Source: an uncultured Thermus sp. (GTDB lineage: Bacteria > Deinococcota > Deinococci > Deinococcales > Thermaceae). Taken from it: 24,177 nt of DNA. The notes under the pieces are model-generated. The model made no database searches. It had not been told where the DNA came from and was given only the letters and a program-made list of their open reading frames with translations. The stretch lies in contig CAMTVD010000038.1 in the NCBI GenBank assembly GCA_947085095.1, positions 1 to 24,177 on the forward strand, given 5' to 3'. A program made the position numbers and the translations under genes. Shown in pieces: positions 1-23,467 of the stretch; the stretch's first letter is position 1; each line of letters opens with the position of its first letter.

Positions 1-139
1 AGGGTGTGTGGCGGCGGGTGAAGGGGTTTTTGATGCCTCGGCGGCACTACGGGGGGGTTGAGGAGCTTAGGGAGGCGGTGGTTCAGGCCCTCAAGGCCCT
101 GGGGGGTGTGGAGTTGAAAATCTTGGGGGAGGGTACTTA
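1..139 (+). mobile_element. IS630-family insertion sequence, 3' end (transposase C-terminus 3..140, partial)
   Basis: Frame 3 reads GVWRRVKGFLMPRRHYGGVEELREAVVQALKALGGVELKILGEGT*, resembling the tail after the IS630 'LNPIExxW' catalytic Glu motif. Ends at a TA dinucleotide (138-139). Exact reverse complement of 24039..24177. Confidence 0.85.
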
Positions 140-2427
140 ACTGCAACGGCACCCTGGATGCGGGGGAGACCACTCTCATCCCCAGCGTGACCCTGGGCAT
201 GGGCCAGCAGGCCTGCGTCATCGTGGTGGCCACCGTTCCCGCCACCGCCGAAAGCGGCCGGTACGGAAACCTGAACCTGGTGGGCGTTTCCGCGGGCAAC
301 CCCTCCGTCACCGACAACAACAACTGGGCCCGGGCCGTGGCCACCGCCCAAGCCGCCCTCACCGCCAGCAAGAGCGCCTCTCCCACGGGGGCCGTGAACC
401 CTGGCGCCACCATCACTTACACCATTAGCGGCCAGAACGCGGGGGGTAGCGCCGCTTATGGCATCCCCGTTATCGTGGACGACGATTCCAGGACGGGCAT
501 CCTCATCGCCGACGTCATCCCCACGGGCCTTACCGTGAACGCCATGCCCACGGGGTACGCCGGCGCCGGGGCCGTTCGCCTCATCTACGACACCGAGACC
601 GGCTGGCAGACCCTGAGCGCCTCCGCCCTGCCCCTCACCGGCAACGGCACCGTCAAGATCGGGATGCTGATTGAGGGGACGGGGGCCTTCTTCCCCGTGG
701 GCGCCCAGTACACCTTCACCTTCCAGGCCCAGGTGCCCAGCACCGCTGCTGCCGGGACCAGCTACGCCAACTCCGCTACCGTGCAGTTTGACGCCAACGG
801 TGACGGCGACGCCCAGGACCCCGGCGAGACGGTGATCACCAACACCACCACCAACACCGCGGCGGCCCGGTACGGCGTTGCCGTGGGGCCGTGGGAGTAC
901 CTCGAGGGTGGGGCTAGCGGCACCTACACCGCGGGCGGCTACACGGTGAACCGCACTGGCGACCAGCAGAGCATCGCCTCCGTCTACAGCGGCACCAGCG
1001 TCATCTTCCGCCACACCCTGAAGAACACCGGCAACACGGAGGACAGCTTCACGCTGGGCTTTAGTGGCGCCCCCTCCGGCTGGAGCTGTAGCCTGGTGGC
1101 CAGCGACCTCACCACCCCCATCAGCGGCCCTGTGGGCCCCGTGGCGGCGGGCGGCACCCTGGATTTCGCCCTCAAGTGCCAGGTTCCCGCTACCTTCACT
1201 TCCACCACCGCCACCACCCTCACCGTTACGGCCACCAGCGTGGGTGACCCCTCCAAACAGGACCCCACCACGGACGTGGTGAACCAGGTGGTCTTGGGCT
1301 ACGCCGTGGACCTGGCCCGGCGTGGTGCAGCGGGCGATGGCGACCCCTCCAACGACAACCCCGCTCCCCAGACCGCCAACCCCGGCCAGGTGGTCTACTT
1401 CCCCATTGACGTCTACAACGCCGGCCAGAACCCCGATGTCTACAACCTGACCGCTTCCCTGCCCGCGGGCTGGGCGGTGGTCTTCTACCCGGACGCCAAC
1501 TGCGACGGGGCCATGGACACCCCCGTCCCCGCCCCGGTGACCAACACCGGCCTCATTAACCCAAGCGGTACCAGGTGCTTCATCGCCGCCGTGCAGGTGC
1601 CCGCCGGCGCGGCCCCTGGGGCTAACTCGGTGAGCTTCACCGCTACCAGCACCGCGGTGCCCACGGTCACGGACACCATCTCCACCGCGGTCACCGTCAA
1701 CCTCGTGGCCCAGGTTACCCTGGACCCCGACCGCTCCGGCACCGTGACGAGCCCGGGCACCATCACCTACACTCACACCCTCACCAACTCCTCCAACGCC
1801 CCGGCTACCTGCGCCATCAGCGGCACAGGCGGGAGCCACGGCTGGACCTACCAGTACTCCCTGGACGGTTCCACCTGGAGCTCCAGTCTGAGCGGGGTGT
1901 CTGTGCCAGCCAACGGCGGTACCCAGACCATCCACGTCCGGGTGCTGGTGCCGGCCGGAGAGCCCGTGGGCCGTACGGATGTGAACGTGGTGACGGCCAC
2001 CTGCGCTGTGGGCTCTGCCACCACTGGCGGCACCGCCACGCAGACCACCACCGTGGTGGGCGGGGAGCTTCGGCTCACGAAGTCCGTGGATAAGGCCACC
2101 GCCTACCCCGGCGACACCCTCACCTACACCATCGTGGCCGAGAACATCGGCACCGGGAACCTCACCAACGTGAAGGTCTCCGACCCCATCCCCGCCTACA
2201 CCACCTTCGTGAGCGTCACCGCCACGGCCACGGGCTTCCCTTCCGGTAGCGCCATCCTCTACTCCACGGACGGCACCAACTGGAGCGCCACGCCGCCCAG
2301 CAGCGTGCCCGTGGGTGGGGCGGTTTACGTGGGCGTGGACTTCAACGGTGATGGTGCCATCACCCCCGCCGACGTCATGCCGCCCGGTGCCAAGATCACC
2401 CTCATCCTGACGGTCCGGGTTCAGTAG
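139..2427 (+). pseudogene. DUF11-repeat secreted surface protein (putative major pilin-like subunit), 5' part separated by the IS630 insertion
   Basis: The frame of ORF 187..2427 is open back to the IS junction (NCNGTLDAGETTLIPSVTLG...). There is no signal peptide, and the start aligns with an internal point (about residue 115) of the paralog at 2520. Thr/Val/Gly-rich, DUF11 motifs (SKSASP..PGATITYTI..QN; LTKSVDK..PGDTLTYTIV.EN..SDPIP), NxGN-type Ig-like repeats and DxNxDG loops. Confidence 0.8.
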
Positions 2428-2435
2428 GTTTTCTT

Positions 2436-2481
2436 CCCCGCCCCGGGGCTTCCCCGGGGCGGGGCCCCCAAAGGGGGTTTT
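2436..2481 (+). terminator. Tandem hairpin, intrinsic terminator or mRNA-stabilising stem
   Basis: Perfect 13-bp stem CCCCGCCCCGGGG-CTT-CCCCGGGGCGGGG (2436-2464), then CCCCC-AAA-GGGGG-TTTT, just after the stop at 2427. Confidence 0.8.
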
Positions 2482-2519: not shown

Positions 2520-5165
2520 ATGAGAAGAACCCTCCCCCTCCTCCTAAGCCTCCTGGGTCTGGCCTGGGCCCTGACCCCGGCGGGCACGGTCATCCGCAAC
2601 CAGGCGGAGGCCCGGGTGGGGGGGGAGCGGTACTTGAGCAACGTGGTGGAGACCTTGGTCCAGGCCCTTTGCGTGCCCAGCGTGACCCCGGATGGGACCC
2701 TGGCCGCCCCCGGTCAGGAGGCCCAGGCCCCGGCGGGGAGCTTCGCCTATCTCTCCTACCGGGTGGCCAACCTGGGGAACGCCCCCTTTACCCTGGGTCT
2801 GGACCATCTGGATCTAGACGCGGGTTTTCGCCCCGAGGTGCTCCGCCTCTTTTTGGATGAGAACGAAAACGGACGGCCGGACCCCGGGGAAACCCCGGTA
2901 TCCTCCCTGTTCCTGAGCCCCGGGGAGGTGAGGCGGGTGGGGGTTGAGGCCCGGCTTCCTTCCCCCGCCTCCGGCTTCTACTTCTTCACCCTCAGGGCCT
3001 CCTGCACCGACAACCAGGGGGTCAAGCGGGACGGGGAGAACTGGGCCCGGGTGCGGGTGGGAGATGGGCCGCTTCTCCAGGTTTTCAAGGAGGCCACCCC
3101 CACCCAGGCCCGCCCGGGGGAGGTGGTCCTTTTCCGGCTGACCCTTCATAACCTGGGTGGGGAGGCCACGGAGCCTATCCACCTCACCGATGACCTCTCC
3201 GGCCTGCCCCTTGCCTACGTGCCTGGCTCGGCCGTGGCCACCCAAGGCCAGGTGGAGTTTTACGATGGAACGGACTGGAGCGTCACGGAGCCCCTTGTGG
3301 TGAAGGCCCTTCGCCTGCGAGTTTTGGGGCTTCCCCAGGGGGGGAGAGCGATCCTGACCTTTGAGGCTCGGGTCCTGGACGCCCCTCCCCAGGTGGTCCG
3401 TAACCTGGCCCAGGCCCAGGGGCCTGGGGGCCCGGCGGAGGGAGGAGCGGACATCCAGATCCTGCCCTTCCACCGGCACTACCTGGGCCCCCTAGGAAAC
3501 CCCAGGGCCCTCCCGGGGGACGAGGGGAGCGCCGACGACCGCCAGGCTAAGGAGGCCCTCGAGGGCCAAAGGGCCTGCTTTGCCCACACCTTGGAGAACG
3601 CCGGCAACGGGGAAGAGGCTCTCGCCCTTCGGGTGGAGGGGCTTCCCCAGGGGGCTACCGCCACCTTCCTAGACCTCGTGGGCATCCCCCTCGCCAACCC
3701 CTTGCCCCTGGGCCCCGGGGCTAAGGTGGATTTCCAGGTCTGCTACGAGGGCTTCGCCGCTCCCTTCACCGCCAAGGTGGTGGCCCGGGGCGAGGCGGGG
3801 GACAACGCCACCTGGGACCAGGTCTCCCAAGTGTGGCCAGCGGGAAGCCTCTCCCTCCGCAAGGAGGTGAGCCCTGTGGGAGCCGTGGCTCCTGGTAGCG
3901 AGCTTACCTACACCCTCACCTTGGAGAACGGGATCGGGCCCATGGAGGTGGAGGTGCGGGACCCCCTAGACCCCAACCTGGACTTCCTCTCGGCTTCCCA
4001 TGGTGGCGTTTTGGAGGGGGGTGAGGTGGTCTGGCGCCTTAGCCTGCCCCAGGGCACCGCTCGCCTTACCCTCAGGGTCCGGGTGAAGCCCGGCACCTCC
4101 GACGACACCCTTGTCCACAACCAGGCCCGCCTCAGGACCCCCCTGGGCCCGGATCCCCTTCCCTCTAACTCCGTGAAGACCCCCATCTGGGGCGCCGCCC
4201 TCCTCCTACGGAAGGAGGTCCGGCCCCAGGAGGCACAGCCCGGGGACCTCCTCACCTACACCCTCCGGATCTCCAATCCCGCCTCCGCTCCCCTCACCGT
4301 GCGCCTCGAGGACACCCCCGACCCTCGCTTGCGCCTGGTGGAGGGTAGCGTGCGGAGGGGTTGCGCCAACCCCGTCCCCTGGAATGCCCAGGTGAGCCAG
4401 GGCAGGATCCTCTTCGCCCCCATGGAGCTTCCCCCGCGGGGCCAGGAGTGCCTGACCTACCAGATGCGGGTCCTCCCGGGGCCTCTGGGGGAACTTGTGA
4501 ACGTAGCCCAGGCTTTTGGCCTTTCCGCCCAGGGGGCGGCGGTGGCCAGCGCCAAGGTCCAGGCCTTGGTCCGGATCCGCCCCGGGGTCTTTGAGGAGAG
4601 GGGTCTCCTCCTGGGCCGGGTCTTCCTGGACCTGGACCAGGACGGCCTTTTCTCTCCCGGGGACATCCCCGTGCCTGGGGCCAGGCTCCTCCTCCCTGGG
4701 GGGCTCCAGGTCCTCACCGACCGGGAGGGGCGGTACGCCTTCCGCGACCTTCCCTATGGGGTCTACCAGGTGATGCTGGACCCCAGCACCGCTCCCTTCC
4801 CGCCCCGGCCCCACCCGGAGGCCCTGGGGGAGGGGTACCGCCACCGGGTGCCCGTGTATGGCCTGGCGGTCACCGACTTCCCCCTTTCCCTTGGCCTAAA
4901 GGTGAAGGTGCGCCGCACCACCCTCCTCCGCATGGGCCCCCTCACGGTGGAGAAGAGGGTTTTGGAGGTGGGGGATGGGGTCTTGGCCGTCCTCAAGCTG
5001 AAAGCGGAGGAGCCCCTGCCCGGGTTCCGCCTCCTGGACCCTGTCCCGGGGGGAGAGGACTTCGTCTTTGAGGCCGAGGTGCTGGAGGGGGAGAAGACCC
5101 TGAGCTATAGGCTTCCTCCCGGAGCCCCCTTCACCGATCCCCAGGTGCGCTGGAGGTACCCATGA
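2520..5165 (+). CDS. Secreted DUF11-repeat protein with SdrD-B-like C-terminal domain (putative base or adaptor subunit)
   Basis: Sec signal MRRTLPLLLSLLGLAWA; mature start LTPAGTVIRNQA; three DUF11 repeats (VFKEATP, LRKEVSP, LRKEVRP); GRVFLDLDQDG..PGD.PVPGARL..TDREGRYAF motif; ATGA overlap with the next gene. Confidence 0.88.
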   Translation: MRRTLPLLLSLLGLAWALTPAGTVIRNQAEARVGGERYLSNVVETLVQALCVPSVTPDGTLAAPGQEAQAPAGSFAYLSYRVANLGNAPFTLGLDHLDLDAGFRPEVLRLFLDENENGRPDPGETPVSSLFLSPGEVRRVGVEARLPSPASGFYFFTLRASCTDNQGVKRDGENWARVRVGDGPLLQVFKEATPTQARPGEVVLFRLTLHNLGGEATEPIHLTDDLSGLPLAYVPGSAVATQGQVEFYDGTDWSVTEPLVVKALRLRVLGLPQGGRAILTFEARVLDAPPQVVRNLAQAQGPGGPAEGGADIQILPFHRHYLGPLGNPRALPGDEGSADDRQAKEALEGQRACFAHTLENAGNGEEALALRVEGLPQGATATFLDLVGIPLANPLPLGPGAKVDFQVCYEGFAAPFTAKVVARGEAGDNATWDQVSQVWPAGSLSLRKEVSPVGAVAPGSELTYTLTLENGIGPMEVEVRDPLDPNLDFLSASHGGVLEGGEVVWRLSLPQGTARLTLRVRVKPGTSDDTLVHNQARLRTPLGPDPLPSNSVKTPIWGAALLLRKEVRPQEAQPGDLLTYTLRISNPASAPLTVRLEDTPDPRLRLVEGSVRRGCANPVPWNAQVSQGRILFAPMELPPRGQECLTYQMRVLPGPLGELVNVAQAFGLSAQGAAVASAKVQALVRIRPGVFEERGLLLGRVFLDLDQDGLFSPGDIPVPGARLLLPGGLQVLTDREGRYAFRDLPYGVYQVMLDPSTAPFPPRPHPEALGEGYRHRVPVYGLAVTDFPLSLGLKVKVRRTTLLRMGPLTVEKRVLEVGDGVLAVLKLKAEEPLPGFRLLDPVPGGEDFVFEAEVLEGEKTLSYRLPPGAPFTDPQVRWRYP

Positions 5166-8100
5166 GAAGGGCCTTTTTCGCTCTCCTCCTGGCGGTTTTC
5201 TCCCTGGTTCGGGCCCAGCCCACCCTTCCCCCAGACCTGGGTGTGCCCCCCGGGGGCGCGGCCTGGGGTCTTCTGGGGGTGATCCCGGGAAGCGGCCTGG
5301 GCTGGTTCACGGACACCGTGGTCCTGCACCTGAGGGCAGAGGGGGAGGTGCGGCTTTGGCTCTACTCCCCGGGCCTGGACCCCCAAGACTACCGCTCCGC
5401 TCTCCAGGGCAGGCCGGAGCTGGGGGACGAGCGCTACGACCAGAAGCCGGTGGAGGCCACCTTCCGCCTCCTGGACTCCGGGGGCCGGGTTCTGGCGGAG
5501 AGGCGGTACGGCCTCGAGGCCCACCGCTACGATCTCCTTTACCAGGGAAGGCTTAGGGGGGAGTACCGCCTGGAGGCCCGCCTCCAGGGCCACGCCAAAA
5601 ACGCCTTCGCCCTCTTCCTGCCCAAGGGGGTGGAGGCCTACGCCCCCCCAGGGCTTTCCGTCTTCGCGGTGCGCGCTCCCCAGACCGCCTATCGGGCCAC
5701 CGAGCCTTACCCCCTTTACCGCCTCTTGGTGAAGACTCCAGGCTACCGCCTGGGCCTTTACGACGGGGATGGACCCGGGGAGCTGGAGGTCTACCTGGAC
5801 GGCCCTAAGGGGCGGGCCCGGATGCCCGTGAGCGGGGACCGGGAGTGGGTCTTCTACGAGCTCTCCCCCGGAACCTACACCCTTCTCTTCCGGGTGCCCC
5901 CCTCGGCCCGGCAGTACTCCAACACCGTGGCCCTGGGCCTCCCCAGCTGGATGCACCTTAGAGAAGACGGGGTGATGGCGGAGTTCGCCCCCTCGCCCAT
6001 TGCTGTGAGGGCGGTGGATACCCAAGGCAACCCCGTGCCCATGGAGCACCGCCTGGTGGAGGAGCGGGGCTATAGGGTGGTGGAGCCCTTCCTGCCCCAG
6101 GGTTACCGCCTGGTGCGGGTGGAGGTGGAGGGGGGCGAGGCCCTGGAGGGGCAAAGGGCCCGCTTTGGCCTCATGGGGGGTCGGGTGCTCTATGTCCTGG
6201 AGGCTTTGCCACCGCGGGAACCCCGTCCCCAGTTGCAGGAGGGGAGGCTCCGCCTGGAGGCCCTCCTGGTCCTTCCCACTGGGGAGCGCCCCTACGCCCT
6301 CTCCCTGAGGATTGCCCAGAAGGAGGTGCGCACCCCCGCCTCCTTGAACCTGGCCCCTGGGGCTTACACCTGGGACCTTCCCCAGATTCCCGGTGCCCTG
6401 GTGGAGGGGCCCACCCGGGTGGCCCTGGAGCCCGGCGAGGAGAGAACCCTGGTCTATAGGGTCTACCCCCGGGTGGAGTTCCGGCTTGCGCCGGAGGCCC
6501 AGACCTTGAGGGAAGGGGAGGAGGGGGTGCTGGTCCTCGAGGCCACCACCCGCTTCCCCGACCTCCTGCCCGCGGAGCTCACCCTGGAGCTTCCCGAGGG
6601 CCTGGAGCCCCTGGGTCCCACGCGGGCCACCCTGCCCCTCAAAGGGGAGGCCCGCCTGAGGGTTCCCTTCCGGGCCAAGGAGAGAGGGGGGTATAGGGTT
6701 AGGGGAAGCCTAGCTCCCTGGGGCCTCTTTGGGGAGGCCCGGGTGGAGGTCCTCCGCCCCGCCACCTTCGCCCTGGAGAAGAGGGCTCTATCCTCCCGGG
6801 CCCCGGTGGGGGAGGAGGTGGCCTTCCTCCTCAGGGTCCAGAACCTGGGGGACGAGGGGGGCGGGGTGGTCCTGGAGGACCTTGCCCCCGATCTGGGCAT
6901 CGCCTACCGGGAGGCCTTTACCCTCGGTCCTGGGGAGGCCAGGGAAGTCCTCCTCCGGGGACGGCTGGCCAGGGTGGGGCCCCAGACCAACACGGCCCGG
7001 CTCTTTTTGGGGGAAAAGGAGGTGGCCCGGGCCCAGGCGGAGGTGGTGGGCCTTGCGCCCGAGGCCCGCCTGGTGAGGGAGGCCGATCTCGGTGCCTTCG
7101 TGCCGGGGGAGGAGGTCCTGGTCTGCCTGAGGGTGCGGAACACCTCGGAGCTTCCCCTCAGGTACGTCCTCCAGGACGAGACCCCAGAGGTGGTGGAGGC
7201 CCTTTCCCAAACCCGCTTCCAGGGGGAGCTCCGCCCCGGGGAGGAGAAGGCCCACTGCTACGGGGCCCGGGTCCGCTTTGGCCCTGAAGGCGAGGGGCGC
7301 TTCCGGGCCGCTCTGGCCTATGGGGGTGAGGTCCAGGTGAAGGAGGCGAGGCTCAGGCGGGTTCTGCCCACCCTGGCCAAAGAGGCTTTCCCGGAGCGGG
7401 TCCTCGAGGGCCAGGAGGTGGTCTTCCGCCTCCGGGTGGGGAACCCCCTGGACCGTCCCCTGGTTCTCACCCTGCGGGAGTCCCCGGATGCGAACCTGGG
7501 CATGGAGGCCAGGGAGGTGCCCCTCCTGCTCTCCGCCAGGGAGGAAAAGGTTCTGGAGTTCGGGGCCCAGCCAAAGCGCCCGGGGCGCTACCGCAACCAG
7601 GTGGCCCTTTTCCACAGGGGCGTCCCCGCGGCCTTCCCCGCCGAGGCCAGGGTCCAGGTCCTGCCCCTCCTGCAGGCGGAGCGCCTCTCCACCGTGGAGA
7701 TCCCCTACGCCCTGGAAGCGGAGGGGGGCGAGGTGCTCCTGGGCTTCTCCCTTCCCGAAGGAGCCAGCTACGAGCCCGGTAGCGCCCGCCTGAATGGCAG
7801 GCCCATCAAGGCCCGTCTCCTGGGGAACAACCTCCTCTTCCTGGTGCCGGAAAGGGCGGGGCTCATCGCCTTCAGGCTCCGCCACCAAAATGCCCTGCCG
7901 CCCCTGGCGGAGCCCCAGCTCACCCTGGTCTACGGGGGTCGGGAGCTCTCCTTCCGGGGGAGCCTGAGCCTGGCGGACTACCGCAAGGCCTCCCCCGAGC
8001 CCGAGGAGCGAAGGGCCCCCATCCTCCACCCCCTCCCGGGAAGCCTCGTGCCCGATGGGGTTACCAGGGCTATCGTGGAGGTGCCCCTGGGCCTCACCCC

Positions 8101-10531
8101 CCGCCTTTTGCTGAACGGGGAGGAGGTGCCCTTCGCCCAGGTGGGCCTGGTGGCCGAGGACAAGGACCGGGGGGTTATGCGGGTGGAGTACTACGGCCTA
8201 AAGCTGAGGCCCGGGAGGAACCTCCTCCGCCTCTTTGCCCCGCCCCTGACCGACGAGGTGGAGGTCTTCGTTCCCGGCAGGCCCCACCGCCTCGAGGCCA
8301 CCCCCTTGAGCCTCAAGGCCGACGGGAGCACCCCCTTGGAGTTCCTGGTGCGGGTGGTGGACGAAAACGGCCTCCCCACGGGCTTTGGAGCCCTTTCCCT
8401 GGAGACCTCCCCCGAGCCCCTCCTGCCCGATGCCTTCCCTTTGGAGCCGGGCTACCAGGTCCTCCTCAAGGACGGGGAGGCTCGTCTCCTCCTCAAGCCC
8501 ACCCCTGTGCCGCAGGAGGTGATGGTGCGGGCCCGTTTCGCCCCCCTCCAGGACACCTTCCGCTTCTTCGCCGGGGGCATGGACAAGCCCCTCTGGCTCC
8601 TCCACGGGGGGCTGGTCTGGCGGGTGGCGGAGGGGGAGCTCTTTGGCGCACTCGGGGCTTACGCCGAGCTTCCCTTCCTAAGGGGCAGGCTCCAGGTGGC
8701 CCTGGGCTACCCGGCGGGGCTTTCCGCCCCCGGGGCTCCCGAGCGCTTCCCCCTCACGGGCTCGGCGGGGGAGGCCAGGAGGATTCTTCCCTCCCAGGAC
8801 CCCGTGGCCTTCCGCTACGATGACCACCTCCTCACCCTGGGCTACGGGGAGGTGAACCTGGCCCTTCCCGGCCTTACCCCTCCTCGGGCCACCGGGGCCT
8901 ACCTGGAGACCCGGGGGGAGGTGGGCCTGAAGGCCTACGCCGCCCTCCTCCCCTCGGGAGACCGGGACCTGGAGATCACCCCAGACGGCACCCGCCTTTA
9001 CTTCCTGGGGGAGGCGGTGCGGCCGGGGAGCGAGAAGGTGACCCTGGTGGAGGGGGCCTCGGAGAAGCCCCTGGTCCCCCTCAGGGACTACACCCTGGAC
9101 TACCCCACGGGGCTTCTGGTCCTCTCCCGCCCCCTCTACCCGGTGAGCGAGGCGGGCCTCACCGTGCGCCTCAGGGTGCGCTACACCCCCGAAAGCGCGG
9201 ATCGGGACTTCCTCGCCTTCGGCCTCGGGGCCGAGCACCGCACCGGGGGCTTCTCCTTCGGGGCGGGTTACCAGCGCCTTCCCGGCGGCGAGGCCTGGGG
9301 CGGGGAGGTCCGCTATGAGGAGGGGAGGGACCGGCTTCGCCTCTCCTTCCGGCGGGAGGGGAAGAGCCGCTTTGGCCTCGAGGCCGCCCTGGGAGGCCCC
9401 ACGGGCCTCCGCCTGGAGGGGGGCCTGGCTTACACCCTGGAGGATGGCCGCCTCGAGGGCCAGGTCCGGGCCTCCCACCCCTTGGGCCGTGGCCGGGTCT
9501 CCCTGGAGCAAAGGGACCTGCAAACCGCCCTCCTCTACGAGATAGACCTCAAGCCCCTGGTGGTGGGGGCGGGCCTGGGCTACGCCTGGGATCAGGCCCT
9601 CTTCCTGGCCCTCCTCCGGGGTGGGTACAGGGAGGGGGGCACCGAGGCCCTGGCCACCCTCTCCAACCAGGGAGCCCTTCTGGAAGCCCGCTACCCCCTC
9701 TCCGATACCCTCGCCGCCGAGGCCTTCCTCTCCACGGACTGGGAGAGGGTGCGGGGCCGCTTCGGTCTCAGGCAGAAGCTGGGGGATGGAAACCTGGCCG
9801 TTTCCTACGAGCTTCCCGGCGAGGCCGGGGAGGCGGGCCGGGCCCGCTTCGGGGCGGAGGTTCCCCTGCCCCTCAGCGAGAGGCTTTCCCTGAACCTGTC
9901 CGGCCAGGCCTCGTTGCCCGGGGGCTTCGGCCTCTCCGCCGCTCTCCGCTACAAGGAGGAGACCCTCTCCGCCCTCCTGGCCCTGGACTACGCCGAGGGG
10001 AAGCTCGCCCTCCGGGCCGGGGCCACCGGGGCCCTGGACCGGGAGAGCACCCTGGGCCTCGAGGCCACCTTCCAGCTCTTCCCCGAGCCCAAGGGGCGGT
10101 TCAGCGTGGCCTACGCCCTCAGGGCTTCCCGGCTTTCCCTCCTCACCTACCACCGCCTGGTCTACCCGGAGGGCGAGCTCAAGGGGGAGGCCCAGGCCGC
10201 CTACCTTCTCACCCCGTACTTCCAGCTCCGGGCGGGCCTGGCCTACCGCCACCTCCTGGCAGATTCCTTGGCCTTCACCTACCAGCTTTCCTTGGGAGCC
10301 CTGGCCTATTGGGGCGAAAGCGGCCTGGGCCTGGGAGGTGGGGTCCACTACGCGGCCCAGCCCGGCACCGGCGCAAGCGCCCTCGCCTTCAGCGTGGAGG
10401 GGGCCTACCGCCTCCGGGACTACGCCAGCCTGGCCCTGGGCTACACCTTCGCCGAGGCCCTCCTCTTCCTCACCCCCGAGGCCAGGGGAGGCCTCTACCT
10501 GCGCCTGGACATCTTCGGAGGTAGCCGATGA
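5162..10531 (+). CDS. Large outer-membrane protein: Ig-like/DUF11 domains plus C-terminal beta-barrel
   Basis: Signal peptide MRRAFFALLLAVFSLVRA; DUF11-like repeats (ALEKRA..VQNLG..EDLAP..TNTA; LAKEAF..VGNPL..RNQV). The last ~450 aa are amphipathic Gly/aromatic beta strands ending GGLYLRLDIFGGSR. Confidence 0.82.
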   Translation: MRRAFFALLLAVFSLVRAQPTLPPDLGVPPGGAAWGLLGVIPGSGLGWFTDTVVLHLRAEGEVRLWLYSPGLDPQDYRSALQGRPELGDERYDQKPVEATFRLLDSGGRVLAERRYGLEAHRYDLLYQGRLRGEYRLEARLQGHAKNAFALFLPKGVEAYAPPGLSVFAVRAPQTAYRATEPYPLYRLLVKTPGYRLGLYDGDGPGELEVYLDGPKGRARMPVSGDREWVFYELSPGTYTLLFRVPPSARQYSNTVALGLPSWMHLREDGVMAEFAPSPIAVRAVDTQGNPVPMEHRLVEERGYRVVEPFLPQGYRLVRVEVEGGEALEGQRARFGLMGGRVLYVLEALPPREPRPQLQEGRLRLEALLVLPTGERPYALSLRIAQKEVRTPASLNLAPGAYTWDLPQIPGALVEGPTRVALEPGEERTLVYRVYPRVEFRLAPEAQTLREGEEGVLVLEATTRFPDLLPAELTLELPEGLEPLGPTRATLPLKGEARLRVPFRAKERGGYRVRGSLAPWGLFGEARVEVLRPATFALEKRALSSRAPVGEEVAFLLRVQNLGDEGGGVVLEDLAPDLGIAYREAFTLGPGEAREVLLRGRLARVGPQTNTARLFLGEKEVARAQAEVVGLAPEARLVREADLGAFVPGEEVLVCLRVRNTSELPLRYVLQDETPEVVEALSQTRFQGELRPGEEKAHCYGARVRFGPEGEGRFRAALAYGGEVQVKEARLRRVLPTLAKEAFPERVLEGQEVVFRLRVGNPLDRPLVLTLRESPDANLGMEAREVPLLLSAREEKVLEFGAQPKRPGRYRNQVALFHRGVPAAFPAEARVQVLPLLQAERLSTVEIPYALEAEGGEVLLGFSLPEGASYEPGSARLNGRPIKARLLGNNLLFLVPERAGLIAFRLRHQNALPPLAEPQLTLVYGGRELSFRGSLSLADYRKASPEPEERRAPILHPLPGSLVPDGVTRAIVEVPLGLTPRLLLNGEEVPFAQVGLVAEDKDRGVMRVEYYGLKLRPGRNLLRLFAPPLTDEVEVFVPGRPHRLEATPLSLKADGSTPLEFLVRVVDENGLPTGFGALSLETSPEPLLPDAFPLEPGYQVLLKDGEARLLLKPTPVPQEVMVRARFAPLQDTFRFFAGGMDKPLWLLHGGLVWRVAEGELFGALGAYAELPFLRGRLQVALGYPAGLSAPGAPERFPLTGSAGEARRILPSQDPVAFRYDDHLLTLGYGEVNLALPGLTPPRATGAYLETRGEVGLKAYAALLPSGDRDLEITPDGTRLYFLGEAVRPGSEKVTLVEGASEKPLVPLRDYTLDYPTGLLVLSRPLYPVSEAGLTVRLRVRYTPESADRDFLAFGLGAEHRTGGFSFGAGYQRLPGGEAWGGEVRYEEGRDRLRLSFRREGKSRFGLEAALGGPTGLRLEGGLAYTLEDGRLEGQVRASHPLGRGRVSLEQRDLQTALLYEIDLKPLVVGAGLGYAWDQALFLALLRGGYREGGTEALATLSNQGALLEARYPLSDTLAAEAFLSTDWERVRGRFGLRQKLGDGNLAVSYELPGEAGEAGRARFGAEVPLPLSERLSLNLSGQASLPGGFGLSAALRYKEETLSALLALDYAEGKLALRAGATGALDRESTLGLEATFQLFPEPKGRFSVAYALRASRLSLLTYHRLVYPEGELKGEAQAAYLLTPYFQLRAGLAYRHLLADSLAFTYQLSLGALAYWGESGLGLGGGVHYAAQPGTGASALAFSVEGAYRLRDYASLALGYTFAEALLFLTPEARGGLYLRLDIFGGSR

Positions 10532-13500
10532 CGCTTAGGCGTTTGCGTTTTGCGATAGTTTTCCTTCCGTTCCTCTCTTTAGCGCTGGCCTTGTCCCCGG
10601 GGCAGGTCAGCGTCACCATGGTCACTGACCCTTTTCTGGTCTCCGATAGCAACAACTGTGGAGGGGGGGCGGGTCCAAGGGCCGCCTATGTGGGGTTCAG
10701 GATCACCAACACCAGCGGCACCGCCTTGCGGGATGTGCAGGCCACCTTGGGGGGCTTCGCAACAGGGTTTGGGCTAAACGGCGGCCAGGTGGCCACCCAG
10801 GTCATCGGCGGCTTGGCCCCGGGAGAGAGCAGAACGCTTTACTGGCACATCTACTATCCTTGCCACACAGCCTCGGTTAATAGCAGCCAGTTGAGCTTAA
10901 CCCTAAGCGACTCCAATCCGGGAACGGTGACCATCAGCGATTCAGGGACTACGGTTACTTCTACTTCCAGTATCAGCGCTAGCGCAGGGGGTTTGGTTTT
11001 AAACACCACCCTAGGACCAGGGGCTGTCCTTGGCCAAGTCATCACCTACGATGTCACCTACTCCTTCGGGAACATACAAGAGAACGATCGCTTCAACATG
11101 CAACCCGCTGGCAACACCTCCTACAATGCGGGGTGCTTCCAGCTCGTGAACGCTCGGGTAATAGCCTCTCAGGTCAACGCCATCCCCGTTGGAACCAGCA
11201 ATCAGCTCTTTTTCACGGCCACTTCGTCCCAAGGGGGTAGTGGGAACACGGTAACCGTAAGGTACTACATCAAGTATCTATGCGCCAACACCAGCACCAC
11301 GGCCTCACCCTATGCCTCCCAAACAAGTGGCGGCCAGATCAAATACAGCGGAAACTTCGGTGCCGCAGCCACCCAAATGAATTTCCCCGGGGCCACCAAC
11401 TCGCTTTCCATCTCTAAGACAGCCTCGGCCTCAACGGTTCTGCCTGGAAGTGAAGTCGTTTACACCGTCACGATTACCAACTCCTCTAGCCAGTACGATG
11501 CCTACATAGAGCGTATTGAGGATCACCTACCCTCCGGGGTCACCTTCGTGGGCATTGAACCGGGTAGCGATGTCACCGCTGGCAACTCCAGCCAGGTGCC
11601 CCAGCCTGGAGCTACAGGGACCCTTGCCTTTATCGGGAAGCCCTTTGTTTTGGACTCTAGCGGCAACGTGAGCGGCTCTTACCTTGTTCCCAGGGGAGGG
11701 TCCATCCGGCTGATCTACAGGGTCACCATGCCCAGCGTAGAGGGAGCCTACAGCAATAGCGTCACGGCGCATATAGGCTCCACCTCTATAGGACCCGCTA
11801 GCGCAACCGTGTACGTCGCTGTCCCCAAGATCAGCGGCAAGGTGTACGAGGACATCCCCGGCACCGCCCAGCCTTCCGGCTTCGTGCCCCGCCCCGGGGT
11901 CAGGGTGCGCCTCTACCAGGACAGCAACAACAACGGCCAGATAGACGCTTCTGACCCCTTCGTGGCCCAAACCACCACTGCCTCGGATGGGGGCTACACC
12001 TTTAGCCTCTCCGCGTACGGCACCTACCTGGTGGCCGTGGACTCCCGTTCCGTGAGTCCCAGTACCGGCTTCAACAGCGGCTACGGCCAGGGAGATGTCT
12101 GGGCGGAGCAGACCTACGGGGACGACCCCACCACCCCTGCCCTGGACCTGGGCCCCCGTTACGGTGGGCGAGCCCCTGGGGCCTCGGACGGCTTCAACGC
12201 CACCGACACCGCCCCTTCCGCCAACACCGGGGCCAAGCACCTGGCCCGGGTGGCGGTGTCCGGCGGTGAGGTTACCGGAGTGGATTTCGCCTTCAGCTTC
12301 AACGTGGTCACCAACCTGCGGGGCGGGGGCACCGAGGACGAGGACACCAGCGCCAACCGCACGGTCCAGGGCTCGCTCCGCCAGTTCCTGCATAACGCCA
12401 ACGCCATCGCCGGGGCCAACGCCATGCGCTTCGTGCCCGCAAGCCCCTACACCCCCAACACCTCGGGTTCCGGGGGGAGCTGGTGGACCCTAAGCGTCAC
12501 AAACCCCCTTCCCTTTGTCCAAGACGCCTCCACTACCCTTGACGGCACCGCTTACGATGCACTGAACCCCCTTTCTGTGCGGGACACGAACCCGGGCTCC
12601 TTGGGCACCGGGGGCACGGTGGGGGTGGATGCCCTTCCCTTGCTCCAAACTCCCAGGCCCGAGCTGGCCCTGAACTTTTCCAATCAGACCAACGTCTCAG
12701 GCACAGCGGGCATCCGGGTGGAGGCCCAAAACACCACCATCCGCCGCCTGAGCCTCTACGGCCAGCGGGGCTTTAGCACGGGGGGACAGGCGGCCCTCTT
12801 CATCACCAGCACGGGCCAGGCCACCTTGGAGGAGCTCGTGGTGGGCGCCCTCCCCGACGGCAGCGACCCCGCCAGCGTGGGAGCCCAGCAGAACCGCCGC
12901 TACGGGGTGCGCCTGGAGGGGCGGGCCACCGTTCGCCGGAGCTACTTCGCCTACAACGGGTACGCCATTTTGCTGAATGGTCCCTCAGCCCAGGGAAGCC
13001 TCATTGAGGGGAACGAGTTCGCCTATAACGGGCCGAACTCCATCTCTACCGAAGGGGCGGCGGACGGGGATACCGTGGCCTTCTGGAACAGCGGCTCCAC
13101 CTGGAGCACCCAGACGGTCTTCCGGGGGAACCTGGTGCGGGACGTGCGGGAGGTGAGCGGGGGTGGCGCAGGTACCGACCTGGGGAAGGGCTTGGAACTC
13201 TGGTACTCCGGTACCCGGAACGTCCTCATAGAGAACAACACCATCCTGCGGGCCAGGACGGCGGGGGTCGGGATCCACGCCGGGGCCCAGGGCAACACCC
13301 TGCGAAAGAACCTCATCCAGGACACCCTGGGCTACGCGGGCCAGGGCGGGGCGGGGGTGCACCTTTCCAACACCGGGGGCACCCCCCTGAGAAACCGCAT
13401 CACCCAGAACCACTTTGGGGGCAACAGGGGTGTGGCCATAGACCTGGACGCGGGCACCTGGACCTTGGGCGACGGGGTCACCCCCAACGACGGCAACTGC

Positions 13501-15288
13501 AACAACACCTCCCAACCTAACCTGGGTCTGGACTTCCCGGTGATCACCCTGGCCCAGGTGGTGGGGGGAGGCCTCCAGGTTCAGGGCACTGCCTGCCCGG
13601 GCGTCACCGTGGAGGTCTACAAGGCGGTGGCGGGGAGCGGGGACACCTTGGGGGGTCTTGGCTACGGGGAAGGGGTTCTTTACCTGGGTTCGGGCACCGC
13701 CGACGCCAGCGGAGCCTTCAGCTTCACGGTTTCCCTCGCGGGCCTGGCCTCGGGGGACTATGTGAGCGCCATCGCCATGGACGCTAACGGCAACACCTCC
13801 GAGTTCAGCGCCAACGTTCAGGTAGTCTTCGGCTACACGATCTCTGGCCAGGTCTACCACGACCGGGAGCCCAACGGGGTGAGGAACGCTGAGGACTGGT
13901 CGGACGGGGCCACGGTCTACGTGAAGCTGGTCCAGGGAAATGCCGTGGTGAACGTGGCCATGGTGAATCCTGGAAGTGGGGCCTACAGCTTCAGCGGGGT
14001 GGCCCCCGGCAGCTACACCCTACTGCTGGACAACAACCCCTCCACCTCCGACACCGCCCCCACGCCGCCCCTGGGCTGGCTCTTCGTCCACCCCGCAGGG
14101 GGTAGCCGGAGCGTAACCGTTTCCAGCGCGGACGTGCTGGGACAGGACTTCGGCCTCTTCCACGGCTTTAGGCTGGAGGGGCGGGTTTTCCTGGACGATG
14201 GGGAAGGGGGAGGGATAGCCAACGACGCCTTCCAAAACGGCGGGGAGCGGGGCCTTCCCGGGGTGGTGGTGACGGCCACGGACGGGGCCCAGAGCCGGAC
14301 GGCCACCACGGACGGGAGCGGTTTTTACCGGCTCCACATCCCTCACGCTTGGGGAAGCGTGACCCTTGCCCACCCGGCCCGCCCGGCCACGGGCTGGAAC
14401 GACGGCACCTCGGCGCAAAGGGGGGTCTCTTGGGCGGACGCCACCTCGCCTACCTCCGGCGGGGCTACGGTGAACCTGGGTCCTGCCTCGGCCCTGGCGG
14501 GGACGGTCCAGACCCGGAACTTCGGGGTGGTGCGGGAAAGCCGCCTCTACCCGGACGCCTCGGGGCAGACGGGTTCCCCCGGGGCGATCGCCTACGCCCA
14601 CTGGGTACGGCCCGGGACCCTGGGAAGCTTCACCCTGCGCCTGGCCAGCGCCCCCCGCTTCGCCTACCGGGTGCGGCTTGACGGGAACTGCAACGGCACC
14701 TGGGAGCCCACCGAGGCCTTTGCTTCCCTGCCCTACACCTTCCCTGTGGACTCCGCCTGGCCCAGGGAGGCGGATGGAAGCCTTAAGGCCTGCGCCCTCG
14801 AGGTCCAGGTCCTGGTGCCTCCTGGGGAGCCGGACGGGAGCCTGGACATCGCCTTGGTGGAGGGGAGCCTTGTTTGGGACGCCAACCCCGGGGTCACGGA
14901 GGTCCGGGGGGTCACGGACACCACCAGGGTTTCCACCGGGCTGGTGCGCCTGGAGAAGCGGGTGCGGAACGTGACCCAAGGCACGGGCTTCGCCACCACG
15001 GCTTCGGGAAAGCCCGGTGAGGTGCTGGAGTACTGCATCGCCTTCCGCAACCTCGGTTCCAGCCCCGTCTCCGGCTTCACCCTTAGTGACCCCATACCCT
15101 TCTTCACCGACCTCCACCCCTACGGGCCCGGGCAGGACATCAAGCTGGTCCTTGGGGGCACCACCTACCTGACCGCGGCCCCTGACACCGACCAAGGGGA
15201 GGTGACGGCCGGGGTGGTGAGGGTGGGCCTAGGTACCCTGGGGCCTGGAGCTTCTGGGGAGGCGTGCTACCAGGCGAGGATCCGCTAA
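10528..15288 (+). CDS. Secreted adhesin-like protein: DUF11, SdrD-B-like domains, right-handed parallel beta-helix, C-terminal DUF11 (putative tip subunit)
   Basis: Signal peptide ending ..LSLALA; ISGKVYED, ISGQVYHD and LEGRVFLD SdrD-B-like starts; GSLRQFLHNANA motif; beta-helix repeats (IEGNEF, FRGNLV, IENNTI, LRKNLI, ITQNHF); GNTSEFS motif; terminal LEKRVRN..PGEVLEYCI.FRNLG..SDPIP domain. Confidence 0.85.
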   Translation: MTLRRLRFAIVFLPFLSLALALSPGQVSVTMVTDPFLVSDSNNCGGGAGPRAAYVGFRITNTSGTALRDVQATLGGFATGFGLNGGQVATQVIGGLAPGESRTLYWHIYYPCHTASVNSSQLSLTLSDSNPGTVTISDSGTTVTSTSSISASAGGLVLNTTLGPGAVLGQVITYDVTYSFGNIQENDRFNMQPAGNTSYNAGCFQLVNARVIASQVNAIPVGTSNQLFFTATSSQGGSGNTVTVRYYIKYLCANTSTTASPYASQTSGGQIKYSGNFGAAATQMNFPGATNSLSISKTASASTVLPGSEVVYTVTITNSSSQYDAYIERIEDHLPSGVTFVGIEPGSDVTAGNSSQVPQPGATGTLAFIGKPFVLDSSGNVSGSYLVPRGGSIRLIYRVTMPSVEGAYSNSVTAHIGSTSIGPASATVYVAVPKISGKVYEDIPGTAQPSGFVPRPGVRVRLYQDSNNNGQIDASDPFVAQTTTASDGGYTFSLSAYGTYLVAVDSRSVSPSTGFNSGYGQGDVWAEQTYGDDPTTPALDLGPRYGGRAPGASDGFNATDTAPSANTGAKHLARVAVSGGEVTGVDFAFSFNVVTNLRGGGTEDEDTSANRTVQGSLRQFLHNANAIAGANAMRFVPASPYTPNTSGSGGSWWTLSVTNPLPFVQDASTTLDGTAYDALNPLSVRDTNPGSLGTGGTVGVDALPLLQTPRPELALNFSNQTNVSGTAGIRVEAQNTTIRRLSLYGQRGFSTGGQAALFITSTGQATLEELVVGALPDGSDPASVGAQQNRRYGVRLEGRATVRRSYFAYNGYAILLNGPSAQGSLIEGNEFAYNGPNSISTEGAADGDTVAFWNSGSTWSTQTVFRGNLVRDVREVSGGGAGTDLGKGLELWYSGTRNVLIENNTILRARTAGVGIHAGAQGNTLRKNLIQDTLGYAGQGGAGVHLSNTGGTPLRNRITQNHFGGNRGVAIDLDAGTWTLGDGVTPNDGNCNNTSQPNLGLDFPVITLAQVVGGGLQVQGTACPGVTVEVYKAVAGSGDTLGGLGYGEGVLYLGSGTADASGAFSFTVSLAGLASGDYVSAIAMDANGNTSEFSANVQVVFGYTISGQVYHDREPNGVRNAEDWSDGATVYVKLVQGNAVVNVAMVNPGSGAYSFSGVAPGSYTLLLDNNPSTSDTAPTPPLGWLFVHPAGGSRSVTVSSADVLGQDFGLFHGFRLEGRVFLDDGEGGGIANDAFQNGGERGLPGVVVTATDGAQSRTATTDGSGFYRLHIPHAWGSVTLAHPARPATGWNDGTSAQRGVSWADATSPTSGGATVNLGPASALAGTVQTRNFGVVRESRLYPDASGQTGSPGAIAYAHWVRPGTLGSFTLRLASAPRFAYRVRLDGNCNGTWEPTEAFASLPYTFPVDSAWPREADGSLKACALEVQVLVPPGEPDGSLDIALVEGSLVWDANPGVTEVRGVTDTTRVSTGLVRLEKRVRNVTQGTGFATTASGKPGEVLEYCIAFRNLGSSPVSGFTLSDPIPFFTDLHPYGPGQDIKLVLGGTTYLTAAPDTDQGEVTAGVVRVGLGTLGPGASGEACYQARIR

Positions 15289-17105
15289 GGTCTCTGGGCA
15301 TCGTGCTTGCCCCCCCAAAGGGGGGTTTCCCCTTCCGGGCTAAGGAGGAAGGTGTTGCGGTCGTCTTTTAGCTGGCGTTTGAGGACCTTGAGCACCTTGC
15401 CCTTGGCCTCCTTGTCCAGCACGGGGAAGAGGAGCTCAAAGCGGTTTTGGAAGTTCCGGGGCATGAGGTCGGCGCTGGTGAGGTAGACCGCCCACCTTCC
15501 CCCCTGGCGGAAGGCGGCCACCCGGGCGTGCTCCAGGAAGCGGCCCACCAGGCTACGGACGTGGAAGCGAGGGTGGAGAAGGCTGAGGGTGCTGCGCACC
15601 AGGAGGTCCACCCGGGCCCCCTTCTCCGCCGCCTGGACCAGGGCCTCGAGGATCCCCGGGTCCGTGAGGTGGTTGAACTTGAGGATCACCCGCCCCTTGG
15701 GGTGAGCCTCAGCCTGGATGCGTTCCATAAGAAGCCCCTGGATGGCCTCGCCCGTCTTGAGGAGGCTTAGCCTGGGGGTCCGGCCCTCCTGGAGGGCCTG
15801 GAAGAACTCCGCCACCTCCTTCACCACCTCCTCCTTGGCGGTGAAGAGGGAGAAGTCCGTGTACTGGCGGCCGTTTTGCGGGTTGTAGTTCCCAGTACCC
15901 AGGTGGGCGTACCCCCCCTTTGGGGTGAGGAGGAGGAGGGCCTTGGCGTGGACCTTGCGCTCGGAGAGGGGCAGGACGGCCACGTTCGCCCTTAGGAAGC
16001 GCAGGTACCAGGAGAGGTTCAAGAGCTCGTCAAAGCGGGCCCTGGCCTCCAGGAGAACGTGGACCCGCTTGCCCATCCGGGCTGCCCGGATGAGGGCCTC
16101 GGCCAGGGCGTTCTCCTCGCCGATGCGGTACAGGGTGGCCCAGACCTCCTCCACCTCCGGGCTCAAAGCCGCCTCGGCGAAGCGCTCCACCGCGGCGTAG
16201 TCCTCAAAGGGGTGGTAGAGGAGGAGGTCCTTGTCCTGGAGGCGCTTCAGGGGGTTTTTCAGAAAGGCCCGGGGCCTTTCCGGGGGCAAGGGGGGAAAGC
16301 GCCACTCCGCGGGGCCTTCCGCCACCAGGGTGTCCACCAGGGTCAGGTTCAGGGGGGGCTTGAGGAGGAAGACCTCCTGGGGAAGAAGCCCCAGGGCTTC
16401 CCGCAGAGTTTCCCGCCACTCCAAGGGGAAGCCCGTTTCCACCACCAAAAGGGTGGGAAGCCCTTCCTGCCGCTCCTCCAAGGCCTGGGCCAGCTCGTCC
16501 CAGTCCGCCCGGGCCCTTTCGCTTTCCAGAAGCCGCAGGACCCGGAACTCGTAGAGAGGGCTTTCCTCCGGGAGGAAGAGGTCGCTTCGGGCCCGCATCA
16601 GGGCCCCGAGGCGCACGTAGGTGCCCTCCCGCCCGGGGACCTTTAGGAGGCGGGGGAGGTCTTGGGGCAGGCGCACCAGGTGGCTTTGGGAGGCGAAGTA
16701 GAGGGCCCCGTGGCTGGCGTCCCCCGCCGCCTCCCAGGAGATGAGGTCGGTCTTGGGGGCCACCACCTCGGCCAGGAAGACGCGGAAGTAGAGCCAGTCC
16801 AGCTCGTCCAGGGCTTCTGGCTCCAGGATGCGAAGCCGGGAGGAGGCCTCTTCCAGGAGGGTGCGGTAGCGCTCCTGGGCCAGCAGGGCCTGGGCCCGGG
16901 CTTCCTCCAGAAGCTCCAGGTGCTCCTGGCTACCCCTGGCCTTCAGGAAGGGCTTGGCGATGCGGGCGGCGAAGAACTCGTCCAGGTTGCGGTTCCAGAT
17001 AGAGAGGAAGCGCATCCTTTCCAGAAGAGGAAAGTCGGGCCTCTGGCTTTGCTGGAGGACCCGGCGGTTAAACTGGAGCCAGCTCTGCTCGGGGGGGAGG
17101 CGCAT
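15285..17105 (-). CDS. ppk1: Polyphosphate kinase 1
   Basis: SWLQFNRRVL, NLDEFF, HPFEDY, TLYR, ARFDE, KVHAK (autophosphorylated His), HLGTGNYN and GRFLEHAR motifs. Stop overlaps the convergent adhesin gene. Confidence 0.95.
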   Translation of the reverse strand: MRLPPEQSWLQFNRRVLQQSQRPDFPLLERMRFLSIWNRNLDEFFAARIAKPFLKARGSQEHLELLEEARAQALLAQERYRTLLEEASSRLRILEPEALDELDWLYFRVFLAEVVAPKTDLISWEAAGDASHGALYFASQSHLVRLPQDLPRLLKVPGREGTYVRLGALMRARSDLFLPEESPLYEFRVLRLLESERARADWDELAQALEERQEGLPTLLVVETGFPLEWRETLREALGLLPQEVFLLKPPLNLTLVDTLVAEGPAEWRFPPLPPERPRAFLKNPLKRLQDKDLLLYHPFEDYAAVERFAEAALSPEVEEVWATLYRIGEENALAEALIRAARMGKRVHVLLEARARFDELLNLSWYLRFLRANVAVLPLSERKVHAKALLLLTPKGGYAHLGTGNYNPQNGRQYTDFSLFTAKEEVVKEVAEFFQALQEGRTPRLSLLKTGEAIQGLLMERIQAEAHPKGRVILKFNHLTDPGILEALVQAAEKGARVDLLVRSTLSLLHPRFHVRSLVGRFLEHARVAAFRQGGRWAVYLTSADLMPRNFQNRFELLFPVLDKEAKGKVLKVLKRQLKDDRNTFLLSPEGETPLWGGKHDAQRP

Positions 17106-23461: not shown

Positions 23462-23467
23462 GGGGGT

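Follow-up and report, generated by a model that had tools for sequence, protein, structure and literature searches.

The window analysed here is the whole of contig CAMTVD010000038.1 (C38; 24,177 bp), which belongs to the 2.08-Mb, G+C-rich genome of an uncultured Thermus sp.; the nearest named relatives of its proteins are Thermus species. Its plus strand encodes four large open reading frames (ORF1 to ORF4), the last three of which overlap start to stop. In ORF2, the 31 residues that follow the signal peptide are, by profile comparison, the G-H hairpin of a CLIPPER/DUF11 domain and bear the Asn of its isopeptide bond. The C-termini of ORF1 and ORF4 consist of the opening part of such a domain, with a Lys and an Asp. 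We think it likely that the two parts complement each other in trans. Somewhat less firmly, our sequence comparisons and models favour a surface fibre, probably stable to heat, in which the subunits are joined head to tail by donor-hairpin complementation, probably with a Lys-Asn isopeptide lock. Taken by itself, a covalent lock at the joint has in our view an even chance.

Genes (window coordinates):
139..2427, plus strand: ORF1, 3′ fragment; candidate shaft subunit with Pfam DUF11 and NCBIfam TIGR01451 and TIGR04226 matches
2520..5165, plus strand: ORF2, 881 amino acids; candidate base or terminator subunit
5162..10531, plus strand: ORF3, 1789 amino acids; candidate outer-membrane export or anchor platform, its start overlapping the ORF2 stop
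10528..15288, plus strand: ORF4, 1586 amino acids; candidate tip adhesin

CLIPPER is the new name of the DUF11 family. According to the accessible text of the report that describes it (Protein Sci 2025, PMC12617251), CLIPPER domains are immunoglobulin (Ig)-like, and the Lys of the first strand bonds with the Asn of the penultimate strand, with a neighbouring Asp as the catalyst. In its structure 9IFR the domain spans residues 708-828, the bond joins Lys715 to Asn806, and the catalyst is Asp748. The window proteins match this family with PF01345 scores of 61.8 bits for ORF2 and 47.3 bits for ORF1 (cut-off 24.6), and with TIGR01451 scores of 61.8 (ORF2), 74.4 (ORF1) and 55.0 bits (ORF4), all above the curated cut-offs. 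Sequence searches of the Protein Data Bank (PDB) that started from ORF2, from its domain D4 or from the end domain of ORF1 had no significant match, with unrelated chains at best (E 0.14-1.3), and did not retrieve 9IFR, so the link to this structure rests on Pfam membership and on the table in that report.

The mature N-terminus of ORF2 is a predicted donor hairpin

2520..2570, plus strand: ORF2 signal peptide, 17 residues ending AWA, read from the sequence
2571..2663, plus strand: donor hairpin, ORF2 residues 18-48, equivalent to the last two CLIPPER strands; Asn27 at 2598..2600

ORF2 opens with MRRTLPLLLSLLGLAWA, followed at exactly 2571..2663 by the 31 residues LTPAGTVIRNQAEARVGGERYLSNVVETLVQ. 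The cleavage site between AWA and Leu was read from the sequence; two Arg residues, a hydrophobic core and an A-x-A motif resemble a Sec signal. In the relatives, the hairpin motif always starts 0-3 residues past an A-x-A-like site. Only 17 residues precede the hairpin, and the ORF2 chain therefore lacks any earlier part of the domain to which it would belong, as the earlier note on this DNA had stated.

That note had also proposed that the peptide mimics the last two strands of a DUF11 domain, including the candidate isopeptide Asn, and profile comparison bears this out. Profiles were cut from an alignment of 76 ORF2-family sequences and compared with hhalign. The hairpin profile (residues 18-50) aligned with columns 86-116 of the 116 columns of D4 (residues 441-556), a complete CLIPPER domain of the same protein, with a probability of 93.5% and a pairwise E of 2.3e-7, placing Asn27 on the family-invariant Asn534. 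Weaker matches to D5, D2 and the internal domain of ORF1 placed Asn27 on the conserved Asn661, Asn295 and Asn195. The D5 and ORF1-domain matches lie near the C-terminal end of the domain; the D2 match covers 15 residues only (columns 105-119 of 136). The score of 35.0 for the real profile compares with 6.9 for the reversed profile and at most 14.7 (mean 8.4) for 30 column shuffles. Three non-CLIPPER domains of ORF2 scored 8.0-12.4. The two truncated terminal domains described below scored only 8.8-10.6, indicating that they contain no hairpin-like part. A Pfam scan of the isolated 37-residue hairpin piece, which is too short for this purpose, returned no family.

Asn27 is invariant in the 76 ORF2-family sequences. 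The hairpin motif is present in 93 of the 94 proteins of the ORF2 search list, which includes a few ORF1-like proteins, and the lone exception begins inside the protein. The hairpin is the most conserved stretch of both the ORF1 and the ORF2 families, and the hairpin profiles of the two families match one another with a probability of 98% (hhalign). The motif occurs in all 108 full-length ORF1 relatives (at least 860 residues); the other 11 of the 119 are N-terminally short records. It is also found in the 5′ fragment of ORF1 from this genome. The peptide is thus no orphan, as the earlier note had called it.

The complete CLIPPER-type domains of ORF2 provide a reference for the position of the reactive residues. 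After the hairpin come domain D1, three complete domains of the CLIPPER type, one domain that resembles SdrD_B and, at the C-terminus, a small domain. The Lys/Asp/Asn triads of the complete domains are 190/224/295, 448/481/534 and 565/598/661. Their Lys-to-Asp spacing of 33-34 residues is the same as in 9IFR, where Asn806 stands about 22 residues before the end of the domain (PMC12617251, accessible text), like Asn27 in the hairpin.

ORF1 and ORF4 end in the complementary part of the domain

2068..2424, plus strand: ORF1 C-terminal acceptor domain, a CLIPPER domain that ends after the F strand; Lys632 at 2080..2082, Asp666 at 2182..2184, no Asn strand
14941..15285, plus strand: ORF4 C-terminal acceptor domain; Lys1477 at 14956..14958, Asp1521 at 15088..15090, ending directly after the F strand

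The truncated domains named in the earlier note are real. Position 2068 corresponds to Leu628 of ORF1 and position 14941 to Leu1472 of ORF4, and both domains keep the Lys and the Asp and lack the hairpin part. ORF1 residues are numbered on a 746-residue reading from position 187; the true 3′ fragment begins at nucleotide 139. The ORF1 end domain, from Leu628, corresponds to columns 4-129 of the 171 columns of the complete internal domain of ORF1, and the hairpins correspond to columns 134-171. In 63 ORF1-family sequences Lys632 is invariant and Asp666 is present in at least 90%. When scanned alone, the end domain matches DUF11 with 50.6 bits over profile positions 2-57 of 114 only. The complete internal domain has a Lys/Asp/Asn triad at 62/109/195 and matches TIGR04226, the RrgB D2 type, with 31.8 bits (cut-off 30). 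A pattern search places the end of 117 of the 119 listed ORF1 relatives at the F strand. The two exceptions are one protein with four extra residues and one that ends alike in VQVQ, which the pattern missed.

ORF4 has a signal peptide, a β-helix, and SdrD_B and CarboxypepD_reg domains before its acceptor domain. All nine copies examined (the window and eight relatives' loci) share the L-x-K-x-VRN and DP[IV]PFF motifs and the same end, and their N-terminal adhesin parts differ. No hairpin sequence was seen at the N-terminus of any of the nine, which were read by eye without applying the motif pattern. Scanned alone, the ORF4 end domain stays under the 27-bit cut-off of DUF7507, scoring 18.7 bits over positions 13-86 of the 105 in the profile.

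ORF1, ORF2 and ORF4 end in TVRVQ, VRWRYP and YQARIR, respectively, in each case directly after a β-strand, with neither an LPXTG-type signal nor a hydrophobic tail. The scanned ORFs of the window include no match to a sortase family.

The triad is therefore divided. The ORF1 and ORF4 ends hold Lys and Asp, the ORF2 hairpin holds Asn only, and a full set of the three is present only across chains. The residue layout of a tag/catcher pair is present, with Asn27 on one side and Lys632/Asp666 or Lys1477/Asp1521 on the other. The earlier note had suggested a naturally split tag and catcher. The complementarity of the parts is supported by the profiles and by the docking model below; the idea of an isolated pair is not, since the parts belong to a conserved ORF0-ORF4 cluster that points to the polymerisation of subunits.

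A model of the complex between acceptor domain and hairpin

We modelled ORF1 residues 615-746 together with ORF2 residues 18-56, each with its family alignment. The interaction prediction score from aligned errors (ipSAE) was 0.71, 0.70 and 0.71 in three runs and 0.00-0.01 in three controls. The pass mark for this score was reached by 116 of 157 solved complexes and by 2 of 215 mismatched pairs. The runs agreed in at least 98% of the contacts, and the predicted local distance difference test (pLDDT) of the partner was at least 77. In the modelled interface, residues 25-35 and 38-50 of the peptide meet residues 628-641, 645-651 and 659-667 of ORF1, which include the strands of Lys632 and Asp666. 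The model suggests that the two pieces can rebuild a CLIPPER fold; it does not by itself imply that they bind.

A proposed mechanism of fibre assembly

In the mechanism we propose, the binding, the bond, the order of the subunits, the fibre and the role of ORF3 are all predicted. One CLIPPER domain would be split between chains, with its first part at the end of ORF1 and ORF4 and its last two strands at the beginning of ORF1 and ORF2. After Sec export and cleavage of the leader, the incoming subunit would place its hairpin in the C-terminal domain that the preceding subunit leaves open, completing the fold there. This would position Lys632 (or Lys1477), Asp666 (or Asp1521) and Asn27 as in the triad of a whole domain, and an intermolecular Lys-Asn isopeptide bond could then form on its own. 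The layout of donors and acceptors suggests an order from tip to base of ORF4, ORF1 repeats and ORF2. ORF4, an acceptor only, would be the adhesin at the distal tip; ORF1, both donor and acceptor, would form the repeating shaft; ORF2, a donor with a distinct conserved C-terminus, would be added last as the cell-proximal base. The giant barrel of ORF3 would serve as the outer-membrane platform.

The gene order ORF0-ORF1-ORF2-ORF3-ORF4 is kept in all eight relatives' loci, which were hand-picked among good matches and come mostly from complete genomes. ORF2 relatives were found in 44 of 61 sampled genomes of the family (E up to 1e-30) and ORF2 matches in 123 of 151 sampled Deinococcota genomes (E up to 1e-20), a count that may include paralogues.

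ORF3 comprises a signal peptide, parts that resemble Ig and DUF11 domains and, at its C-terminus, a very large β-barrel (8459..10528). Its only Pfam match is a weak one to Porin_4 (E 0.003), and it has no match to an usher family (PF00577 type). An AlphaFold2 (AF2) model of residues 1100-1789 has a pLDDT of 85.4 and is all-β, with about 40 up-and-down strands. Foldseek matched the barrel to LptD, to the FimD and PapC ushers, to TonB-dependent receptors and to the Deinococcus SlpA complex at E of about 1e-7. The template modelling (TM) scores of these matches are only 0.14-0.26 when normalised by the query and at most 0.35 when normalised by the target; for FimD and PapC they are 0.21-0.26 by the query, with a root-mean-square deviation above 19 Å. 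The predicted structure indicates that ORF3 is a very large outer-membrane barrel. We also considered ORF3 as an usher rather than an LptD or a TonB-dependent receptor, a choice that Foldseek is unable to make, as it identifies a generic large barrel only.

L018 957..1472 (contig C22), directly upstream of the 5′ part of ORF1: ORF0, a secreted single domain of 171 amino acids

ORF0 lies directly upstream of ORF1 in this genome and in all eight loci, and it has no Pfam match. It aligns with the ORF1 acceptor domain and has the same strand ending, with VIPIP in place of the SDPIP of the acceptors and without the invariant Lys. ORF0 may be a non-covalent chaperone or cap; as a chaperone candidate it differs in fold from the PapD type.

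Alternative explanations and evidence against the proposed fibre

The chains may complement each other in trans without a covalent bond, in the manner of chaperone-usher, type V and TasA fibres; Lys, Asp and Asn would then contribute only hydrogen bonds and packing. Most known donor-strand fibres are indeed non-covalent (a general observation; see also the accessible text of PMC9715654). However, all three reactive residues are kept here, split across the chains at the positions and spacing of the domains with solved bonds. In addition, the acceptor-like ORF0 has lost the Asp and the invariant Lys, suggesting that these residues matter where they are kept. We regard complementation of a purely non-covalent kind as unlikely.

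A second alternative is a hairpin that stays with its own chain, packed on D1 as a fixed part of the N-terminal module of ORF1 and ORF2. The ORF1 and ORF4 ends would in this case be stable seven-strand variants, and subunits would not complement each other.

2664..3077, plus strand: ORF2 domain D1, a complete Ig-like sandwich after the hairpin

The AF2 model of ORF2 residues 18-186 alone (76 sequences) has a mean pLDDT of 96 and a predicted TM score of 0.86. A peptide that folds into the next domain of its own chain would have spoken against the proposal of the earlier note, and this model touches on the point in part, as the hairpin is well ordered in it. In a fold search with this model, however, 48 of 50 matches begin at model residue 31 or later (to about residue 168), after the hairpin; the other two begin at residues 24 and 4. 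The matches are all Ig-like or PapD-like sandwiches of middling score (Z 7.9-9.7), and since nearly all of them begin after the hairpin, D1 is complete without it. Moreover, pLDDT is measured locally, and even an unpacked hairpin can score high if it is well defined. The invariant Asn27 has no invariant Lys partner within residues 18-186 in the 76-sequence alignment, the acceptors keep their Lys and Asp without an Asn of their own, and the complex model passes its controls. A hairpin that merely packs on its own chain is quite improbable. D1 also contains two invariant Cys residues, Cys51 and Cys162, which may form a disulfide. Its matches include PapD-like chaperone domains and ASH/MSP domains, a likeness that may be a mere common Ig arrangement.

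The conserved N-terminus could instead be an export or targeting signal that is read by the ORF3 barrel or by ORF0 after Sec export. Its position at the mature N-terminus, its conservation in both families and the constant presence of ORF3 and ORF0 alongside are compatible with such a signal. Yet ORF4, which would be surface-bound as well, lacks the motif in all nine copies, as judged by reading their N-termini. The motif is homologous residue for residue to the G-H strands of whole domains, and a targeting signal would leave the truncated acceptors unexplained. We consider this very unlikely. Finally, ORF1 may close in cis, with its own hairpin inserted into its own end domain; cis closure would not account for ORF2, with a donor only, and ORF4, with an acceptor only.

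Several observations weigh against the fibre proposed here or against parts of it. The two halves of a split fold tend to pass complex modelling. Our model may have passed through its likeness to solved whole CLIPPER or CnaA-type domains, and the pair Lys632-Asn27, on which the covalent lock would depend, is not among its listed closest pairs. Some DUF11 domains have no bond, according to the accessible text of the CLIPPER report (PMC12617251). The AF2 model of the ORF2 N-terminus keeps the hairpin ordered (pLDDT 94-97; strands at model residues 7-16 and 19-29) and may pack it on its own D1. The eight loci are close kin and hence not independent. ORF3 is not demonstrably an usher, with TM scores that do not exceed 0.26 (query) or 0.35 (target). 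No chaperone family was found in the window, and the Pfam matches of ORF1-ORF4 include no PapD family. The shaft gene is cut by a repeat that resembles an insertion sequence (see below), and the system may therefore be inactive in this strain.

The C-terminal mini-domain of ORF2 adds to these points.

4941..5162, plus strand: ORF2 C-terminal mini-domain; Lys812 invariant, Asp840 nearly invariant, no Asn strand, tail TDPxVRWRYP

It keeps Lys812 and Asp840 without an Asn, which makes the terminator role of ORF2 an uncertain guess. The mini-domain may receive a further donor, be joined to its own tail through a Lys-Asp bond, or bind to ORF3. Its ending W-[RK]-Y-(P) is shared by 77 of the 94 listed proteins of the ORF2 search. 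The N-terminus of ORF3 was considered as a hairpin donor to it; by eye, neither the N-terminus in the window nor the family consensus has an N-x-A motif, and this candidate was dropped.

Comparison with known systems

The complete internal domains of the window proteins belong to the same family as those of the CLIPPER adhesins and share their triad and Lys-Asp spacing. In those adhesins the bond is intramolecular, within a single chain (PMC12617251), whereas the terminal domain of the present system has its parts on two polypeptides. The terms ‘strand complementation’ and ‘split’ do not occur in the accessible text of that report.

The proposed fibre would work on the same principle as the ‘donor strand exchange and lock’ described for Clostridium perfringens BsaA, of the TasA family (bioRxiv 10.1101/2024.11.04.621531). 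As far as the accessible text of that study goes, the N-terminal segment of BsaA enters the sheet of the next subunit, an intermolecular isopeptide bond follows, and mutants of the bond residues form no oligomers. BsaA differs in its TasA-like fold, in its Gram-positive host without an outer membrane and in its SipW/type IV pilus-associated export, and it has no giant barrel and no set of adhesin, shaft and base. Up to E 0.1, the Pfam matches of ORF1-ORF4 include no TasA-type family. For the archaeal thread Saci_0406 (Nat Commun 2022, PMC9715654), also from a thermophile, a head-to-tail fibre with donor-strand complementation and proposed intermolecular isopeptides has been described. There, according to the accessible text, the bond would link the N-terminal amine of Asp24 to Asn57 of subunit n+2. 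A single strand serves as the donor, a Lys-Asn-Asp triad and a Pfam domain are both absent, and the archaeal host has one membrane.

In the logic of its subunits the proposed fibre resembles chaperone-usher pili (Fim, Pap, Csu), and the Foldseek matches of ORF3 include FimD and PapC. The tip adhesin of such pili is an acceptor only, their shaft subunits combine an N-terminal donor with an incomplete Ig fold, growth stops with the last subunit, and the outer membrane holds a large barrel. Their donor is one strand and their link non-covalent, in contrast to the two-strand, possibly covalent joint proposed here; the ORF3 barrel, with its roughly 40 predicted strands, is much larger, and the acceptor is only the last domain of multidomain subunits of 750-1600 residues.

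SpyTag/SpyCatcher, SnoopTag and Isopeptag pair a tag that carries Asn or Asp with a truncated domain that holds the Lys and the catalytic acid, and the bond forms spontaneously on docking. Such pairs were made by laboratory cutting of Gram-positive CnaB or pilin domains. The present split, in comparison, is a natural one; its tag consists of two strands, a hairpin from a CnaA-like CLIPPER domain, and the origin is a thermophile. In Gram-positive sortase pili, too, the shaft is a covalent polymer of Ig-like domains that have Lys-Asn bonds inside them, a likeness also seen in the TIGR04226 match of the ORF1 internal domain. The present system differs in its outer membrane and in the proposed link, which would run from side chain to side chain within a domain.

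In the full-text literature (subscription-only papers and supplements lie outside it), no description of a split CLIPPER domain or of the ORF0-ORF4 gene set was found. The accessible text of a 2026 review of bacterial surfaces does not mention CLIPPER or DUF11. The proposed conserved fibre system of split cross-linking domains is apparently undescribed. The full proposal reaches further: a previously undescribed fibre of outer-membrane bacteria in Deinococcota, that is, a sortase-free covalent pilus with hairpin-completed split CLIPPER joints, an autocatalytic lock, an export and anchor barrel of about 40 strands unrelated to ushers, ORF0 as a non-covalent chaperone or cap, and a natural tag/catcher pair from a thermophile. 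For all of these together, our confidence falls somewhat short of even, and we put the whole forward tentatively.

Should the hairpin indeed complete and cross-link the domain of its neighbour, outer-membrane bacteria could build covalent fibres without sortases, and a function could be assigned to a gene set of most sampled Deinococcota. To our knowledge, covalent fibres have so far been documented only as Gram-positive sortase pili, BsaA and, tentatively, archaeal threads. In that case the ORF2 hairpin would form, with the end domain of ORF1 or ORF4, a two-strand thermostable tag/catcher pair that evolved naturally and has a CnaA-like CLIPPER fold, unlike the CnaB fold of SpyTag.

Interruption of ORF1 and the ORF1-ORF2 spacer

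1..138, no strand assigned: end of a repeat resembling an insertion sequence (IS) that cuts ORF1; about 139 nucleotides that recur at contig ends, with ORF1 resuming in frame at nucleotide 139 (NCNG)
2436..2477, plus strand: two G+C-rich stem-loops in the 92-nucleotide spacer between ORF1 and ORF2, a 13-bp stem-loop and a second hairpin that is followed by a U-rich stretch

Bases 1-139 match 16 places in the assembly apart from the window start, nearly all of them contig ends, and the same repeat of about 139 nucleotides stands inverted at the far end of the window (24039-24177). It is probably the end of a multi-copy IS that broke the assembly. The first ~134 codons of ORF1 (to residue 134 of an 896-residue relative) are found at the end of contig C22 (L018 1492..about 1890), where a signal peptide is followed by MTPAGTQIQNQASASYIDSAGQPRTTTSNLVATVVQQVY. 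ORF1 is thus split across contigs, at IYLDA on one side and NCNG on the other; past the break, the C22 copy enters unrelated sequence and a stop. ORF1 is probably interrupted by an IS in this strain. The reverse complement of the C22 end gave no real alignment with the window start, and the two probably carry different IS ends.

The RNA of the ORF1-ORF2 spacer has a predicted folding energy of -47 kcal/mol (z -3.19), which none of 200 shuffles equalled. A simple terminator scan did not call these stem-loops on the plus strand. They recall the attenuators that follow major-pilin genes, and it is possible that they act as an attenuator after the shaft gene.

Variation among the loci and other genes of the window

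Two of the eight loci depart from the common layout. In L012 (373..4291), ORF1 is present as two ORFs with a gap of ~1 kb. In L011 (11319..12978), an insert of ~1.6 kb lies between ORF3 and ORF4, and ORF3 is shorter. In a second family of the phylum, many genomes have 2-4 ORF2 matches, which suggests several paralogous clusters per genome.

Downstream of the cluster, in the region 15285-18626, a polyphosphate kinase gene on the minus strand (15285..17105) faces a plus-strand Ppx/GppA phosphatase ORF. As listed, from 16662, this ORF overlaps the kinase gene by ~440 nucleotides; its Ppx domain begins only at residue 189, and the true start is therefore probably later. The region 18750-23593 encodes a TetR regulator, an acyl-CoA dehydrogenase, a MaoC dehydratase, a short-chain dehydrogenase, a ferritin-like protein and an integrase. 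The integrase is of the phage type and lies on the minus strand (22538..23593), where it adjoins the terminal repeat.

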